A stretch of DNA of 64,000 bases from NCBI GenBank assembly GCA_963675495.1, contig OY776215.1:1120001-1184000 (forward strand), written 5' to 3'. This stretch comes from an uncultured Methanolobus sp. Lineage in GTDB: Archaea > Halobacteriota > Methanosarcinia > Methanosarcinales > Methanosarcinaceae. Positions 40,655 through 47,528 of the stretch are shown one piece after another (positions within the stretch are counted from its first letter, which is position 1; every line of letters begins with the position of its first letter). The notes under the pieces are model-generated. The model worked only from the letters and a program-made list of their open reading frames with translations, did no database searches and had not been told where the DNA came from. The position numbers and the translations under genes are program-made.

Positions 40655-40903
40655 TCACATCAAGCCAATTCTAGTCGCTATCTCATGGGCAGCTTCTGTG
40701 CCTTCGAAAGTAACGATAGCTTTCTTCAGACCTTTCATTGTGCTCATTGTACAGACAGATGCAACAGGGAACCCGTACATCTTCATTACATCAGCCTTGA
40801 TCTGATTCTTGTTTGCGCGGGTATCAACAATGAACTGAAGTTTATTGTCTTCCAGCAGCATCATCGCTTTTTCAGTGATAAACGGATACTTGATGACATT
40901 CAT
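40655..40903 (-). CDS. rpl23: 50S ribosomal protein L23 (uL23)
   Basis: P.ITEKA, F.VD.RANK, KKAIV. Confidence 0.95.
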
Positions 40904-41661
40904 TCGAACATTCCCCCAAGAGAGGACATTGCAGACTCGGTCCAGACTACTAATCTACCTGCATGTGTTCCTGGTGCAAGGAGCTCAGCATTCAATGCAT
41001 CAACAGATACAACATCCACGCCTGAAAGGTTTCTTGCAGATCTCATCAATGGACTGTCACATGTTGCAACAATGAGGAGACTCTTCTTGTTCTTGTATCT
41101 CCTCCCACGGATCTTACCCTTTCCTGCACGGATATTTCTTCCATCCTTTGCACGGATCACGTCGTCGTAAACACCTGCATTCTGCAGGAAGCTTATAACA
41201 TCCTTTGTCTTTTCAACGTTTTCAAGTTCATCTGCAGCGACCAATGGAAGCTGTGCATCGAACCTGTGCCCACGGCCTTTTACGAGTTCTGCATCGGTTG
41301 TTGCAGCGATTGCAGAGCGTATGGCCATACGCCTTTCTTTCTTGTTGACCTTTTCAGTTTTGTCCGCTTCAGGCTTTGGAGGATGTGCTCTCCTACCACC
41401 TACAGCCTGAGGAACTCTTGCTGCACGGCTACCATTGACAATTCTTGGGATCTGAGCAGCGCCTCTGCCTGAGCCCCATGATTTTGCGGAGGTATCCATA
41501 CCAGAGTACATCCTAGGACCATATGGCTGATACCTGTTTGCCTGAGCTGCAAGAACTGCTCTTTTGATAAGATCAGGTCTGTATGCTTCATCGAATACTT
41601 CAGGAAGGTCTATGTCTCCCTTAGCATTTCCTGATAAATCTATAATTTTTGCTGTAACCAT
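40900..41661 (-). CDS. rpl4: 50S ribosomal protein L4 (uL4)
   Basis: [33 protein letters not shown]. Confidence 0.97.
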
Positions 41662-41666
41662 TCAGT

Positions 41667-42680
41667 TCACCCCTGCTTGGACTGTGTACTTACGTGAACG
41701 ATCTGTGGTTCACTCGTAGCAGGTACTTTTGACCTCATTGGATCTCTAAGCCTTACAAGCCTCTTTGAAGGTCCAGGAATACTTCCTTTAATGAGGACAT
41801 ATTCACCACGGATAAGACCGTAGTTGATGAAACCACCTGTTGGAGTAATCTCTTCCCCATCGGTACCTACCTTCAGGATACGCTTGTTGTATTCAGTTCT
41901 CTGGTGGTAACCCATCTGTCCCATCTGTGGCACTGTCCATCTGACAACTGCTGGATGCCATGGACCAAGCGTACCGACCTGTCTGAGACTTCCCTGACGT
42001 GAGTGCTTGTTCTTCATCAGGTTGATACCCCATCTCTTTACAGGACCCTGGGTACCTTTACCGGTTGTGATAGCTGCCACGTCTACAAATGTACCTTCAT
42101 CAAAAACATCACTGAGCTTTATCTCTGAGCCGAGTAGGGACTTTGCATATTCGAACTTTGCCTTTACATCAGACCCACTGACTGCGGTCTCCATTATGTC
42201 AGCGTTCTTTTTAGGAACACCTGTCAGTTTCTTTGGTAAAGTGTAAGTTATCACTTTGATGTCCGTAACATCGCCTTCATCGATCATGCCCTCGATCTTT
42301 GCAAGAGCAGATTCTGTATTGGATGTCTTTGGCAATGCAATTGTCTTTCCAAGACTCTCATCAAGGTCTGCTGCCCAGGCTTCGGAAAGTGCTTTGTCAC
42401 CATACGTAGAGCTTGTGTAGGCACGGACTGCAGCAACACGAACAGCAGGAGTTTCTACAACAGTTACAGGAACTGAGATCTCCATACCTTCTGTGAGGCT
42501 GTATTTTACGTCATCTACCATTACCACATGAGTCATACCCACTTTGTAACCTGCAAAATCCTGAAGCTTTGGTTCTCCAGCAGCTTGTGGCCATGAGTTA
42601 AACCTTGGTATGTGGCTTTTTGCTCTTACGCGTGGACTGAAAGCGAGTGATCCTCGTTTTGGTCTGTGTCCTTTTGCCAT
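41667..42680 (-). CDS. rpl3: 50S ribosomal protein L3 (uL3)
   Basis: [39 protein letters not shown]. Confidence 0.97.
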
Positions 42681-43351: not shown

Positions 43352-44215
43352 GTGGAAATTAAAAAAGCCGTGATACCTGTAGCAGGGCTGGGAACCAGGT
43401 TCTTGCCGGCAACAAAGTCCATGCCAAAGGAAATGCTGCCAATCATCGATAAACCAGTGATCCATCACGTGGTTGAGGAAGCTATCGCCTCGGGGATCGA
43501 TGACATCATATTCATAACCGGAAGAAGTAAAAGATCCATAGAGGACTACTTTGATGATTCCCCAGAACTCGAAAGCCACCTCCGGCAAAAGAACAATGAA
43601 AAACTTTTGAAGATCGTGCAGGATATTTCTTCAATGGTGGATATCCACTACATCAGACAAAAAGAGCCAAGAGGTCTGGGAGATGCAATCCTCACGGCAA
43701 AGAAACACATAAATGATGAACCTTTTGCTGTATTGCTTGGTGATGATATCATAGTGAACGAGAAACCATGCACAAAACAGTTGATCGATAACTTCCAGAA
43801 ATACGGCCGTTCAACAATAGCAGTGGAAGAAGTCCCCTTTGAAAAGACAGGCAGTTACGGCATCATTAAAGGTAAGGTATTGGATGACTCACTATATGTA
43901 CTTGAAGACATTGTGGAAAAACCAAAGCCTGAAGATGCCCCTTCCAATATAGGCGCCATTGGAAGGTATGTATTTACACCGGAGATATTGGACTGCATCA
44001 AAGAAACGACCGCTGGAGTAGGTAACGAGATACAACTTACAGATGGTATACGTCTTTTGAAGGAAGAACAGAAGATATACGCATACAAATTCACAGGTAA
44101 AAGATACGACACCGGTGACAAGGTTGAATACGTTAAAGCCATCATCGATTTCGCCCTCAACAACGAAGAAATGAGAGAGCAAATAAAACAACACATCACA
44201 GATATAGATCTGTGA
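43352..44215 (+). CDS. galU: UTP--glucose-1-phosphate uridylyltransferase
   Basis: KAVIPVAGLGTRFLPATK..PKEMLPI.DKP, RQKEPRGLGDA, VEKP, EIQLTD. Confidence 0.96.
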   Translation: MEIKKAVIPVAGLGTRFLPATKSMPKEMLPIIDKPVIHHVVEEAIASGIDDIIFITGRSKRSIEDYFDDSPELESHLRQKNNEKLLKIVQDISSMVDIHYIRQKEPRGLGDAILTAKKHINDEPFAVLLGDDIIVNEKPCTKQLIDNFQKYGRSTIAVEEVPFEKTGSYGIIKGKVLDDSLYVLEDIVEKPKPEDAPSNIGAIGRYVFTPEILDCIKETTAGVGNEIQLTDGIRLLKEEQKIYAYKFTGKRYDTGDKVEYVKAIIDFALNNEEMREQIKQHITDIDL

Positions 44216-44264
44216 TCCTATTTCCCACTTATTAGATTACTTCATTGCAAAATGAAGCAATTAA

Positions 44265-44510
44265 TTATCCAGAGCTGCGCTTCACAACTTTCCTGACAGT
44301 TCTGCCCCTGAAATTAACCCCCCCAACAAGCTGGACACCGGGCTTTCCCTTTATTGCATCTGCATAGTCACCATTGAAAGTGGCTATTATACTCTTGTTT
44401 GCAACAACCTCTACGCGTCCACCCACACCAACAAGGGCTTTTAGAATACCTTCTACCTGAGAAGGGGTTGCATTATCAGCAACCCTTATGATATGTGTTT
44501 CCACAGACAT
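44265..44510 (-). CDS. Small hypothetical protein, alpha/beta plait (peptidase inhibitor I9 / ACT-like) pattern, basic tail
   Basis: 81 aa; HIIRV...QVEGILKAL..VGGRV.....SIIATF....ADAIK..PGVQLV pattern; last gene of a tight operon. Confidence 0.55.
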   Translation of the reverse strand: MSVETHIIRVADNATPSQVEGILKALVGVGGRVEVVANKSIIATFNGDYADAIKGKPGVQLVGGVNFRGRTVRKVVKRSSG

Positions 44511-44515
44511 GAAAC

Positions 44516-45595
44516 TTAGTTCCTGGAAATGGACTTCCTGACTGACGCTATTCTGGCGGCCTGCCTGTCAGATAGCACCGCCCTGACATCATTCGCAGCC
44601 CCTGTGACAGCAGGTTTTGCAGCAATACCGGAAACCGCAGCGAACTCTACCTTAGAAGTGGCTACTACAATATCAATTGCAGTTCCGATGTCTGCATGCT
44701 CCCCGGCAGTTACTGATTGGCTGAGAACCTTACCGGCATTCAAAGCATCAGTTTGTTCCGTCACCTTTCCGGAACGAAGCTTAACAGCTTCCAATGCTTT
44801 TTGAGCAGAAGCCAGATTCATACCTACAATATTTGGCACTTCAACTGAAGTGATCTTTGATATAACCAGATCCACAGCATCCCCCGCTTTTGCAACCGAA
44901 CTGCCAGATGGTATCTGAGAGAGTACTGTCGCCTGTTCAAGAGAACTGTCCTTTTCAATGACATCACCCTGTACAAAACCAGCAGCCTTTATTATAGATA
45001 CTGCCAGGTCCATATCCAGCCCTACAACATCAGGCACATCAATATAATCAGAGAATATGCGTTCTTTAGATGATGAATTTATAGTGAATTCGACCTCGCT
45101 CAGGTTGTCTGCAGGAATCACATCGTCTGCCTTTGGAAGCTGGAAACGTAGTTCATCGTCCTTCACAGCTATATTTGTCCTGAGCTTGATGTTCATGGAA
45201 CTTACGTTATAGTCCACCCTTGAGGACTCCGAACTCATAGACTCATCCATTTGCACAAGGGAATCACGAAAAGCCTTAACGAGGTTTGCAGAAGATAATT
45301 CAGGTCTTGTACGCGAAAGTTGTTCCAGTTTCCTATCACTTTCAGCTTTTTCTTTTAGTATTTCCTGAACCCTGCTGTCAAGGATAGCATAATCCTGTTT
45401 CAACACCAGGTTTTCTTTTTTTAACTGTTCGATTGAATCTGTTTTAGTCATCAGCTCTTTCTCTACAGCCTCAAATTCAGACTCAACAGCCACGATGTTC
45501 TTCTGGAGCAGAGTATAACTCTGTTTTTTTGATGCAGCAGTGGTTGACTTATTTAAACGTTCAATATTCTGCCTTAGTTCCTTAATATCGCTCAT
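44516..45595 (-). CDS. Coiled-coil + hairpin-domain + tandem PASTA domain protein
   Basis: N-terminal heptads (~aa 1-95); two PASTA repeats VPDVVGLD...A...IKAAGF...VLSQIP..G and VPNIVGMN...A...LEAVKL...VLSQSV.AG; GGAGGGG RBS. Confidence 0.8.
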   Translation of the reverse strand: MSDIKELRQNIERLNKSTTAASKKQSYTLLQKNIVAVESEFEAVEKELMTKTDSIEQLKKENLVLKQDYAILDSRVQEILKEKAESDRKLEQLSRTRPELSSANLVKAFRDSLVQMDESMSSESSRVDYNVSSMNIKLRTNIAVKDDELRFQLPKADDVIPADNLSEVEFTINSSSKERIFSDYIDVPDVVGLDMDLAVSIIKAAGFVQGDVIEKDSSLEQATVLSQIPSGSSVAKAGDAVDLVISKITSVEVPNIVGMNLASAQKALEAVKLRSGKVTEQTDALNAGKVLSQSVTAGEHADIGTAIDIVVATSKVEFAAVSGIAAKPAVTGAANDVRAVLSDRQAARIASVRKSISRN

Positions 45596-45611
45596 TCCAC
45601 CCCTCCACTCA

Positions 45612-46019
45612 TTACTCTTCCACTATCCTTGAAGAAGAAGGAACTGATACTATTTTTGCCTTAAGAACGCTTGAGCCCTCTACATCATATGAGTTTAGTG
45701 ATTTGTAAGAAGCATTCAAAGGTGCTGCATTAAGGACCCGTTTATATCCACGTATACGGTTCTTTGAATCTCGTTCTTCCTCATATTTCATGGACAGGGC
45801 CATTTTAAGTTCGATATCAACTTCAGGTATGTGATACCAGGTAGCTTCAAGATCGAACTCCTGAAGCGCTTCATCAGTTGAAAGTTCTATTTGTGTATCA
45901 ATGGAATTACGGTCAAGTGCCCTTTGTGTCTGTGCAATGGATTTTCCCATCTCACTTAATATGGTTGAAAGCGGACTGACAAGAACCTCTTCAATACTTT
46001 CGCTACTATTGGATGGCAA
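45612..46019 (-). CDS. Hypothetical protein, DUF2589-like (paralogue B)
   Basis: Aligns by eye with 46098-46709 over three blocks; TTG start with AAGGAGA RBS. Confidence 0.7.
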   Translation of the reverse strand: MPSNSSESIEEVLVSPLSTILSEMGKSIAQTQRALDRNSIDTQIELSTDEALQEFDLEATWYHIPEVDIELKMALSMKYEEERDSKNRIRGYKRVLNAAPLNASYKSLNSYDVEGSSVLKAKIVSVPSSSRIVEE

Positions 46020-46057
46020 AGTATAATCTCCTTCAATGTTCTGTTAAAAATAAATTG

Positions 46058-46081
46058 TCAATGCAGATATCACTGCATTGA
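46058..46081 (-). terminator. Intra-operon hairpin after the first gene
   Basis: TCAATGCAG-ATATCA-CTGCATTGA perfect 9-bp stem followed (minus strand) by ATTTATTTTT. Confidence 0.55.
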
Positions 46082-46097
46082 TCCAAATATACCTGCC

Positions 46098-46709
46098 TTA
46101 CTCTGAGGAACTCTCTTTGACCCTGACGGTCGGGATAGCTCTCTCTGGTGGTGGCACTGGTTTCAGCGTTGTACGCAGAAGACTGGTACCTGATTCACTG
46201 AAGGTATACTTTGACTTATATGTTGCATCATAGGTCGATGTGTATGCAACATTGGTTGTGTTCTCGTAGCTTACCTTAGCTTTGCCAAATAGAAGACCTG
46301 CAAGACCACCGGACTTGTAGCTTCCACTTATTTTGGACTCGTTGGTGAACTTGAACTCCCTACCATATTTCCTTTCTGTTGAATACTCCTTCTTCATTGA
46401 GATAGTCATTTTGACCTCAATGACAGATTCGGTGAATTCATAGAAACGAGGTTCAAGACCATATGTAAGTAAGGACATGGGTTGATCATTTGTAACCACG
46501 TCTGTAGCAGTTACGTTCCCATCCTCATCTACAGTTTCCTCTATATAGAGAATTACACTCCCAGCTTCCAGCTCAGTCTCTGCAAGGGCCTGTGCAACAT
46601 TAATCGAATTAATGTCCAGAGCAGTTTGTCCCTCTGCAATAGCAAAAGCCATTTCTTTTATCATGTCCCCAAATGGAACATCTAATAGTTTTTGACCAAC
46701 AGATGCCAT
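46098..46709 (-). CDS. Hypothetical protein, DUF2589-like (paralogue A) with long Ser/Thr-rich beta-hairpin
   Basis: PFGDMI..MA.AIAEGQ.ALD..S helix, FYEF....IEVKMTI strand, C-terminal PVPPP; GGAGG RBS. Family name from recall. Confidence 0.7.
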   Translation of the reverse strand: MASVGQKLLDVPFGDMIKEMAFAIAEGQTALDINSINVAQALAETELEAGSVILYIEETVDEDGNVTATDVVTNDQPMSLLTYGLEPRFYEFTESVIEVKMTISMKKEYSTERKYGREFKFTNESKISGSYKSGGLAGLLFGKAKVSYENTTNVAYTSTYDATYKSKYTFSESGTSLLRTTLKPVPPPERAIPTVRVKESSSE

Positions 46710-46931
46710 TAAATCCCTCCAAATTTTTTATACAATATATAATGGAACAGTATACCATATAGACTTTGCTAAAAATATTAACATTATTATAAAAATATAA
46801 TTCTTAATTTTTGACTTCGGAACAAATAGAAATATGCAAAAAACAAAAATAAATTTACAAATAAAGCATGAGTAGAAATATGAGATCCAATAAAGACCTA
46901 AAAAAGAAAATGAAGACAGGATAATCTTAGA

Positions 46932-47528
46932 TTATCCCTGTGTTATGGACCTGCCCATCTCAAAAGCCCTGACATTGATATCAATTGTCTTCTGTGGGAC
47001 AAGCTCCCTGACGCATCCCATAATAGTTTCAACAGATATTGGAAGGTAATTTGAAACTGCACCCACCATGACAACATTCATGGACTGGGGATGTCCTGCC
47101 TCTTTTGCAAGTTCGGTTGCATTGAAGGCTTTTACTTTGTGACTCTGTTTAAGTTTTTCAATGATAGCATCAACATCCGGATAGCTGCAAAGCCCTGAGG
47201 TCACAGTGACCGGAAGAATTGGATCGGTGTTCACTATGATGACCCCATCATCAGAAAGGAATTCAAGATACCTGAGTGCCTCACTTGGCTCTAGTGCAAG
47301 CAATACGTCGGCCCCCTTCATAGGGATCATTGAACCGAGCTCACAGTCAATCCTTATATGATTGACAACTGAACCGCCACGTTGTGCCATTCCATGAGTC
47401 TCAGCTGCACGGACTGACATATCTTCCTTTACAGCTGCCTTGCCAATGATATCAGATGCAAGGATAGTTCCCTGTCCACCTACACCGGCGATGACAAGAT
47501 CGAATTTAGAAATTCCTTCTGCACTCAT
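46932..47528 (-). CDS. iorB: Indolepyruvate:ferredoxin oxidoreductase beta subunit
   Basis: GVGGQGTILAS, ETHGMAQRGGSV, NVVMVGA. Confidence 0.94.
   Translation of the reverse strand: MSAEGISKFDLVIAGVGGQGTILASDIIGKAAVKEDMSVRAAETHGMAQRGGSVVNHIRIDCELGSMIPMKGADVLLALEPSEALRYLEFLSDDGVIIVNTDPILPVTVTSGLCSYPDVDAIIEKLKQSHKVKAFNATELAKEAGHPQSMNVVMVGAVSNYLPISVETIMGCVRELVPQKTIDINVRAFEMGRSITQG

Follow-up and report, generated by a model that had tools for sequence, protein, structure and literature searches.

The stretch of DNA analysed here (the window) is 64,000 nucleotides long, positions 1,120,001 to 1,184,000 of the forward strand of contig OY776215.1 in the complete, 2.87 Mb genome of an uncultured Methanolobus sp. 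(GCA_963675495.1), and it contains four closely spaced minus-strand open reading frames (ORFs), here called genes A, B, C and D, that are flanked by a galU-like gene and by iorB/iorA. We find that the four genes occur together in widely separated archaea and bacteria, that A and B are paralogues by sequence comparison, and that the middle domain of C is, by profile comparison, a remote homologue of the Trypco2/Pepco family. The reading that we favour, tentatively and by analogy with Pepco, is that the genes encode a self-contained, non-enzymatic, heteromeric Pepco-like barrel with A as its major subunit, which would be regulated without proteolysis. An earlier note on this DNA had reported four packed minus-strand genes between galU and iorB, and all of these ORFs are present as it described them (Table 1).

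Distribution of the four genes

Relatives of A number 350 in the database at E ≤ 0.001, and all of the named ones are annotated as hypothetical except one that carries the JGI label 'LEA14-like'. Among 311 candidate stretches from species-representative genomes 272 encode an A relative, and 80 loci from these stretches, spread over many archaeal and bacterial phyla, were kept for counts of co-occurrence; they include Methanosarcinales, Archaeoglobi, Bathyarchaeia, Halobacteria and Methanocalculus as well as Aquificales, Acetobacteraceae, Acidimicrobiia and Burkholderiales. Beside A, the 80 loci have B in 79 cases, while C is present in 77 of them and D is present in 72; of the eight loci that lack D, seven end at a contig edge, and in the eighth (L088) the D search found none. 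The earlier note had made its reading depend on the four genes keeping company in other genomes, and these counts show that they do. Clustering of all flanking ORFs found no gene family besides A/B, C and D that is common to divergent loci. By these measures A, B, C and D are one module that travels together, in the order A-B-C-D in Methanosarcinales, Bathyarchaeia and Halobacteria and in the order D-A-B-C in bacteria and Methanocalculus. One locus titled as a Leptospirales bacterium metagenome-assembled genome (MAG; L035) has an A that is 75% identical and the archaeal A-B-C-D order, like Methanosarcina; its contig may be mis-binned.

The four proteins are conserved to very different degrees. 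Identity between the window's proteins and the most distant relatives in each alignment is 50–58% for A (here the archaeal query is compared with Aquificota, Thermodesulfobacteriota and other bacteria), 37–52% for B, 17–29% for C and 14–32% for D, and on this comparison A is by far the most conserved of the four subunits.

Genes A and B

A and B align by BLASTP with 25% identity (E = 3e-10), and the alignment runs through the three blocks that had been proposed earlier; HHalign comparison of the A family with the B family gives a probability of 99.7% (E = 1.2e-25). By both comparisons they are true paralogues, and their common core is marked by the motifs L-x-x-P, A-x-x-Q-x-x-L-D, Y...E...IE[LV]K, G-x-S and [VI]P-x-P. 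No model in Pfam, NCBIfam, PADLOC or PHROGs matches A, B or D. A search with a profile of the A+B core found 1,327 clusters (50% identity) at E ≤ 0.001, 895 of them at E ≤ 1e-10, with proteins 105 to 611 amino acids long in which the hairpin is split by inserts of variable size, and by this search the A/B family is a large one that lies outside Pfam coverage. Among 150 listed representatives, 94 score higher with the A profile and 56 with the B profile. Eighty representatives were also scanned for known domains; none matches DUF2589 or Trypco at E ≤ 0.01, the core is fused to PASTA in 14, and in a few it is fused to DUF4332/HHH_5, Big_2, He_PIG or Laminin_G_3. One superfamily protein (P0269) has a coiled coil, a canonical B-like core and, by eye, a C-terminal PASTA-like stretch, which is the architecture of C, and two others (P0223 and P0224) join DUF4332 to the core, P0223 running on into a PASTA-like stretch.

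The better of two AlphaFold2 (AF2) models of A, made from 139 diverse sequences, has a mean predicted local distance difference test score (pLDDT) of 70.6. It has a long N-terminal helix (residues 13–44), a small hairpin (53–73, with strands at 53–60 and 66–73) and the strands β1 (95–104) and β2 (173–182); means over 10-residue blocks are 78–97 over residues 11–100 and 62–76 over residues 171–200. Between β1 and β2 lies an insert (residues 105–170) that is rich in Ser, Thr, Lys and Tyr and bears, at residues 134–142, the hydrophobic turn GGLAGLLFG to which attention had been drawn before; in A orthologues G142 of this turn is invariant and L140 and F141 are nearly so. The protein ends in a Pro/charged tail (PVPPPERAIPTVRVKESSSE; residues 184–203 are 25% Pro and 30% charged), in which P184, V185, P186, P188, R190 and P193 (P-V-P-x-P-x-R-x-x-P) are invariant in 35 A orthologues. 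The N-terminal helices of A, B and the middle domain of C are modestly amphipathic (z = 1.7–2.1), and alternation is seen in the β1 strand of B (p = 0.01) and in that of C (p = 0.003).

Searches with both A models by Foldseek against the PDB, by VIA-align wide and against BFVD gave nothing significant (best Foldseek E 0.24 and 2.2; best VIA Z 4.6 and 4.2, the top VIA rows matching the long helix only; best BFVD row E 0.04, an unnamed viral protein), nor did a PDB sequence search with the A profile give anything meaningful. As modelled, the confident core of A has no recognisable match in the PDB. Rows that pair A with the pore stems of anthrax PA and of iota and CDTb toxins, with Cry51, parasporin and encapsulins, or with phage tail proteins (E > 0.2, template-modelling score ~0.1) were discarded as noise. 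As an idea only, A and B recall pore-forming toxins such as the aerolysin/ETX-MTX2 group, binary-toxin stems and gasdermins in their Ser/Thr-rich hairpin material with a hydrophobic tip and in the pairing of a paralogue that has the long hairpin with one that lacks it. Unlike those toxins the module proteins are cytoplasmic and much smaller, and they have no significant structural or sequence match to them, although in the fold test against aerolysin, binary-toxin and gasdermin structures the presumed stem, which is the insert, lacks a confident model.

The fold rows also bear on the idea that the module is the remnant of a virus or mobile element, for example of virion or tube proteins. We consider this highly improbable. 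Weak fold matches short of significance, to pore stems and to parts of phage tails and baseplates, lean towards it together with the unnamed viral protein in BFVD, but tblastn with A is empty in 50,697 phage records, no A relative was found in IMG/VR contigs with the A alignment, the single match to A in plasmid records has the module among metabolic genes, and no integrase, terminase or capsid gene is conserved near the module.

Gene C

C consists of an N-terminal coiled coil with weak matches to coiled-coil/SMC-like models only, a middle helix and β-hairpin domain (C-mid), two PASTA domains and an Ala-rich, basic tail (Table 1). The PASTA assignment made earlier is secure (PF03793, two repeats, E = 3.7e-22, with 78.5 bits where the cut-off is 23.2), and PASTA was found in 54 of 54 C-family members scanned, with one to four repeats per protein in the ten members shown. 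After the PASTA repeats 17 of the 54 have an HHH_5 domain and 14 have DUF4332; neither was matched in C of the window. PASTA domains are classically extracellular and bind peptidoglycan, and HhH and DUF4332 domains usually bind DNA. C resembles the PASTA proteins of the PknB/Stk1 kinase and class B penicillin-binding protein types in having bona fide PASTA repeats, and it differs from them in having no kinase or transpeptidase domain and no transmembrane helix or signal peptide, and in that its PASTA repeats occur in archaea that lack peptidoglycan and are combined with HHH_5 or DUF4332.

None of the four proteins has a signal peptide or a transmembrane-like segment (maximum KD19 1.63), as had been claimed for the signal peptide, and this holds family-wide for all four when judged as medians. 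Since C has neither, its PASTA repeats are predicted to be cytoplasmic. This makes it very unlikely that the module is a secreted or surface toxin or adhesin complex that acts on other cells and binds the target cell wall through PASTA. The classical location and ligand of PASTA domains would suit such a role, as would the fusion of some superfamily members to Big_2, He_PIG or Laminin_G_3; many of the hosts, however, are archaea without peptidoglycan, the HhH/DUF4332 ends point to the cytoplasm, and no secretion-system gene is conserved beside the module. The "antagonism system" of the earlier note is thus without support.

That note had also described the middle of C as repeating the helix-strand-strand order of A and B. 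The order is there, but similarity of C to A or B was not detected by BLASTP and stayed below threshold in a first HHalign comparison and in a search of 79 C sequences with the A+B hidden Markov model (HMM; best E 0.0017). C-mid against B gives an HHalign probability of 6% (P = 0.006), which rises to 63.5% (P = 6.8e-5; best of 30 shuffles P = 0.016) when C-mid is merged with Trypco2 in one profile, and homology of C-mid to A and B is therefore weakly supported.

In two Methanosarcina loci (L026:1408-5496 and L027:932-5512) a giant paralogue of C, of 1,362 and 1,526 amino acids, lies directly upstream of A and has a repeated coiled coil, a C-mid-type domain (E ~1e-36), a linker of poly-Ser and no fewer than 12 PASTA repeats, so that the Methanosarcina module has five genes.

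Trypco2/Pepco and DUF2589

Trypco2 (Pepco, PF19631) and Trypco1 (PF19493) are small effectors that co-occur with proteases in the VMAP and Avs conflict systems (Kaur et al. 2020, eLife). A Trypco2 profile made from 35 sequences aligns by HHalign with C-mid (an alignment of 96 columns) twice, once for each Trypco2 repeat, with probabilities of 90.3% (E = 1.5e-6, 76 columns) and 89.9% (E = 1.7e-6, 77 columns). The best of 30 column-shuffled controls reached P = 0.075 and a reversed alignment P = 0.017. By this comparison C-mid is a remote homologue of Trypco2/Pepco, at a distance that single-model searches do not span: the Trypco HMM leaves C of the window unmatched at E ≤ 10, and the 25 commonest Pfam families listed for 53 other C proteins do not include Trypco. 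The Trypco2 proteins collected from Methanosarcinales relatives, of the same class (L111–L117), are 160–180 amino acids long and have two tandem helix-hairpin repeats, where the Pfam model has 78 positions.

On the side of A and B the nearest named family is DUF2589 (PF11655), to which the earlier note had likened their N-terminal motif. A DUF2589 profile made from 40 sequences bears this out for the motif itself, since it aligns with a deep A alignment at 89.3% probability (E = 2.1e-6) over 42 N-terminal helix-motif columns only; against the A+B core the match covers 110 collinear columns and is weak (P = 0.006, probability 6%). A and DUF2589 share the N-terminal 'ELLxxP...AIAxAQ' helix motif, the order of elements, a Gly-rich hydrophobic turn (AGWGWG in the first DUF2589 paralogue of the Archaeoglobaceae clusters below, GGLAGLLFG in A) and an arrangement as adjacent paralogues, and among the ESM Atlas neighbours of A (0.95–0.98) DUF2589 is present in 31–94% of members. 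By the Pfam model, A and B are nevertheless not members of DUF2589: its HMM (gathering score 23 bits) leaves both unmatched at E ≤ 1, and it reaches 1 of 35 A orthologues, at E = 0.074, and nothing in four other module-carrying genomes.

Among 31 Archaeoglobaceae genomes five have an adjacent pair of DUF2589 paralogues. In loci L106–L110 (for example L106:3702-5192, minus strand) two such paralogues, of 189 and 169 amino acids, are followed by a third gene, whose product has 134 amino acids; this third gene matches the A+B core HMM (E = 1.7e-6 to 0.016) and the merged C-mid+Trypco2 profile (91.9%). These clusters have no match to the D profile and, by eye, no coiled-coil/PASTA gene. The genes AF0414–AF0417 of A. 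fulgidus, which a published account describes as 'DUF2589 related' and up on lactate, are probably this sister three-gene DUF2589 cluster of the Archaeoglobaceae and not the four-gene module. Taken together, the profile comparisons suggest one broad helix-hairpin superfamily. It would have two halves, C-mid with Trypco2 and A and B with DUF2589, and support for uniting the halves is only moderate. A functional study of DUF2589 was not found in the literature searches made, nor was a description of the four-gene module or of coiled-coil/Trypco-like/PASTA proteins, and DUF2589 goes unmentioned in the main text of Kaur et al. (2020).

Gene D

D is an orphan. It has no Pfam or PDB sequence relative, and a PDB search with the D profile gave nothing meaningful. 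Judged by eye, its sequence pattern reads as β-α-β-β-α-β. The one lead is a weak ESM Atlas similarity (0.83–0.88) to Inhibitor_I9-like clusters, and the Inhibitor_I9 HMM matches 0 of 39 D-family members at E ≤ 10.

A possible heteromeric barrel and what speaks against it

What might three related helix-hairpin domains and an orphan protein do together? Pepco, as described in a recent preprint (Evans et al. 2025, bioRxiv), is a 117-residue cytoplasmic protein that constitutively forms 9–10-mer β-barrels resistant to heat and to sodium dodecyl sulfate (SDS). The lumen of the barrel is charged and its outside hydrophobic, and the N-terminal helix, which is amphipathic, lies at its base; the C-terminal tail is of the Pro/charged kind, and when a neighbouring protease cuts it off, Pepco becomes a pore toxin. 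By analogy this is an experimental precedent for the ring or pore that the earlier note had imagined. Like Pepco, the module proteins have a small cytoplasmic domain with an amphipathic N-terminal helix, a β-hairpin and a Pro/charged tail, which in A contains the conserved P-V-P-x-P-x-R-x-x-P site. They also use several copies of the helix-hairpin unit, as do the Trypco2 proteins of the Methanosarcinales relatives with their two in tandem, and multi-copy use of the unit is thus a theme that the two share.

It is this common layout of A, B and C-mid that leads us to propose a heteromeric Pepco-like barrel. Its building units would be helix and β-hairpin domains of a broad Pepco/Trypco-DUF2589-like superfamily, and many subunits would each give a hairpin to an oligomeric β-barrel, as happens in Pepco; a helix with a single hairpin is unlikely to be stable as a monomer, which argues for oligomerization. 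The amphipathic helices would lie at the barrel's base, and the Pro/charged tails or the PASTA arm of C would leave it on the same, cytoplasmic side, because a hairpin of the Pepco type should have its N-terminal helix at the same end as any part that comes after β2, with the PASTA arm beside the helices and not on the outside of the cell. The co-assembly of A, B and C, the insertion of A into a membrane and the targeting or cap role of C that the earlier note had put forward are best taken as conjecture. A would be the main building block, present in excess, and B and C minor subunits; A is the most conserved subunit, and in Methanolobus a hairpin and T-run follow it (below), both of which point this way. 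C would contribute a third, Pepco-like copy of the domain, held between its coiled coil and a PASTA arm that ends in HhH in some lineages, and D may be a small accessory regulator, possibly a chaperone, cap or inhibitor.

The barrel could then be a regulated pore whose target is the cytoplasmic membrane, approached from within the cell. Since no protease travels with the module, its control must differ from that of Pepco, and release might come through D or through binding of a ligand or DNA by the C arm; alternatively an unlinked host protease might act on the invariant tail motif of A. The purpose would be conflict or stress-induced permeabilization. The differences from Pepco are considerable: three different paralogous subunits and an orphan fourth gene take the place of a single effector, the domain in C is set between a coiled coil and PASTA repeats, A has a 65-residue hairpin insert, the Pfam Trypco models miss A and B, neither a trypsin- or caspase-like protease next to the genes nor a sensor of the STAND, MoxR or vWA type is present, and barrel formation and toxicity, which are observed for Pepco, are predictions for the module.

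If the proposal is right, it extends to a heteromeric, protease-free form the principle of the pre-assembled β-barrel pore toxin in bacterial immunity, so far known only from single small proteins that are licensed by an adjacent protease, carries it to archaea (including methanogens and anaerobic methanotrophic (ANME)/alkane-oxidizing lineages) and to thermophilic and other bacteria, reveals an unexpected cytoplasmic use of PASTA repeats, and offers a first way into the function of DUF2589 and of the Pfam-uncovered A/B family. We are doubtful of its strongest form, in which the module would be a new, protease-independent class of heteromeric Pepco-like barrels with a ligand- or DNA-sensing cytoplasmic C arm and a D-gated pore, and in which DUF2589, Trypco/Pepco and the A/B families would unite as an ancient superfamily with a fold not yet in the PDB.

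Several observations weigh against a Pepco-like barrel. The Pfam Trypco1, Trypco2 and DUF2589 models match nothing in this genome at E ≤ 10, and A and B compared directly with Trypco2 align weakly (HHalign P = 0.007–0.024). AF2 gives no confident structure for A residues 105–170; the first A model (pLDDT 54.9) drew long hairpins in this insert, there at pLDDT under 50. The alternating pattern that the earlier note had seen in the insert did not hold up, its 170-degree hydrophobic moment being no more than z = 1.2 and 0.1 relative to 2000 shuffles, and the insert strands are low in mean hydrophobicity, so that the insert fits poorly with a lipid-facing barrel. No oligomer of module proteins has been modelled or observed (prediction of an A-B complex gave ipSAE 0.01 in two runs in which the partner fold was uncertain, and counts neither way). 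A cytoplasmic role for PASTA would be unusual, and the neighbouring protease by which Pepco systems are defined, of trypsin or caspase type, was not found in module neighbourhoods: peptidase families are absent from the 25 commonest Pfam families of 86 neighbours scanned, the flanks of the module in the window hold galU, iorAB and ribosomal-protein genes and no peptidase, and none of the four module proteins is an enzyme of the protease or NTPase kind. Finally, A is very highly conserved, as structural proteins more typically are than conflict genes, which evolve fast.

This last point belongs to a different explanation, namely that the module builds a scaffold or other structure that does not kill, located in the cytoplasm or on the inside of the membrane. 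A would make up a stable oligomer or polymer in which B and C are minor subunits, and C would provide spacers or tethers through its coiled coil and its PASTA/HhH arms, for example to DNA or to envelope-facing components, and the assembly would serve housekeeping or stress physiology and not killing. We consider it rather unlikely, less so than the other alternatives. The 50–58% identity of A between archaea and bacteria, the lack of enzymes, sensors and proteases in the module, the absence of significant amphipathic alternation from the A insert, the usually DNA-binding HhH and DUF4332 domains in 17 and 14 of 54 C proteins and a PASTA array that varies from one to at least 12 repeats like an adjustable spacer are all what one would expect of it. 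On the other hand, the only characterized relative, Pepco, is a toxin, and the GGLAGLLFG turn with its conserved G142, L140 and F141 suggests contact with lipid. If the assembly does prove to be non-lethal, the module would nevertheless encode a structural complex that is new, widely transferred and of unrecognized fold.

Genomic context

In the Methanosarcinaceae the module stands at a fixed position by a ribosomal-protein operon (~20 related loci), and its ribosomal-protein and galU/ior neighbours reflect local vertical synteny. The 86 neighbours in diverse loci are mostly housekeeping genes, and defence-type matches among them are sporadic (MkoA/MkoC once, MADS-like matches in two to four members, nSTAND1 once). 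Both the fixed position on the ribosomal side and the housekeeping neighbours are untypical of defence islands and thus count against a conflict role for the barrel; for a scaffold both are favourable. The module is dispensable all the same, which speaks against the scaffold, and its accessory distribution speaks for the barrel: A was found in 19 of 35 other genomes of the genus (not in the remaining 16) and in 32 of 61 relatives overall, and it is missing from several complete genomes.

Three genomes without the module display what is left at its site. In G007 (L127) the site is cleanly empty, with iorB and galU ~110 bp apart; in G032 (L126) galU is reduced to a 29-residue remnant; and G034 (L128) has neither the module nor galU. 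The earlier description of the genes as "inserted" between galU and iorB is therefore accurate in the sense of a presence/absence polymorphism, and the three different states of the locus argue for repeated deletions at one site and not for a recent insertion, galU having been lost along with the module in two of the three genomes.

A patchy, accessory distribution and spread across domains are also features of antiviral systems. In an abortive-infection scheme the PASTA/HhH arm of C would sense a cue such as foreign DNA or an envelope precursor, D would restrain a pre-pore, and A/B barrels would kill the cell. The remote homology to Pepco, an effector of Avs and VMAP defence systems, and the occasional defence genes just mentioned are in keeping with this scheme. 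We think it unlikely, since the PADLOC models miss A, B and D and match no part of C but the coiled coil and PASTA, a sensor of the NTPase or protease kind is missing, a consistent defence-island context and conserved integrase or mobile-element genes beside the module are lacking, and the conservation is unusually high for a conflict gene.

Locus features and variant modules

The positions of the genes, the domains of C and the non-coding elements are collected in Table 1. GC content is 0.336 in 46500–46999, a stretch that takes in the region upstream of gene A; a GGAGGG ribosome-binding site lies 7 nt ahead of the ATG of A, and a GGAG-type site precedes each of the four genes. A related contig (~91% identical) spans the operon and diverges at 46777. 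The stem and T-run in the A-B spacer recur, with variable loops, in 13 of 13 Methanolobus-type loci (L015–L025, L028 and L049), and outside these a hairpin with a T-rich tail was seen between A and B in only 4 of 66 loci tested; the element is a candidate partial terminator or RNA-stability element. In one sequencing run recorded as RNA, three contigs of 151–153 nt lie on A and B with 95–99% identity, and in a second, whose RNA label is a guess, one 224-nt contig lies on C; these data are at contig level and so give no transcription level, strand or ends, and the parts they leave uncovered are uninformative.

Table 1. Features of the module and its surroundings (window coordinates)
Feature	Position	Strand	Remarks
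Gene A	46098-46709	minus	203 aa, ATG start
Gene B	45612-46019	minus	135 aa, TTG start; minimal-core paralogue of A (helix, β1, short charged loop, β2)
Gene C	44516-45595	minus	359 aa
C residues 1-95	45311..45595	minus	coiled coil
C residues ~99-177	45065..45301	minus	C-mid, Trypco2/Pepco-like helix + β-hairpin domain
C residues ~182-315	44651..45052	minus	two PASTA domains, PF03793
C residues 316-359 + stop codon	44516..44650	minus	Ala-rich, basic C-terminal tail
Gene D	44265-44510	minus	81 aa, orphan small protein, basic tail
galU-like gene	43352-44215	plus	flank of module
iorB	46932-47528		flank of module
Ribosomal protein L4 and L3 genes	within 40900-42680	minus	just past galU
Upstream intergenic region	46710..46931	minus	AT-rich, ~220 bp, probable promoter
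Hairpin + T-run in A-B spacer	46048..46081	minus	stem CAATGCAG/CTGCATTG
Terminator-like hairpin + T-run 3' of D	44195..44216	minus	consensus match only

Some loci depart from the four-gene plan. A 653-aa frame that joins a CobB/CobQ-type protein (CbiA + GATase_3) to A (L060:4609-6570) was rejected as a fusion, being an in-frame run-on that is most likely an artefact of MAG assembly or ORF calling. A Sphaerotilus megaplasmid carries a variant module whose proteins have no PASTA match. Two further variants, in a Chloroflexia MAG (L093:5552-10604) and an Acidobacteriota MAG (L094:5584-12558), consist of a D-like gene, an A-like gene, one or two large ORFs of no relation (in L094 of 755 and 799 aa), another A-like gene, a B-like gene extended at its C-terminal end and a gene for a C-like coiled-coil protein. 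The C profile matches nothing in either locus; the C-like ORF of L093 appears to end without PASTA and that of L094 runs off the end of the locus, and the middle domain of these C-like proteins visibly has blocks of the A/B type ('IKSLEIEMKGFIVV...LSTIRMTFGSVPVVRP').

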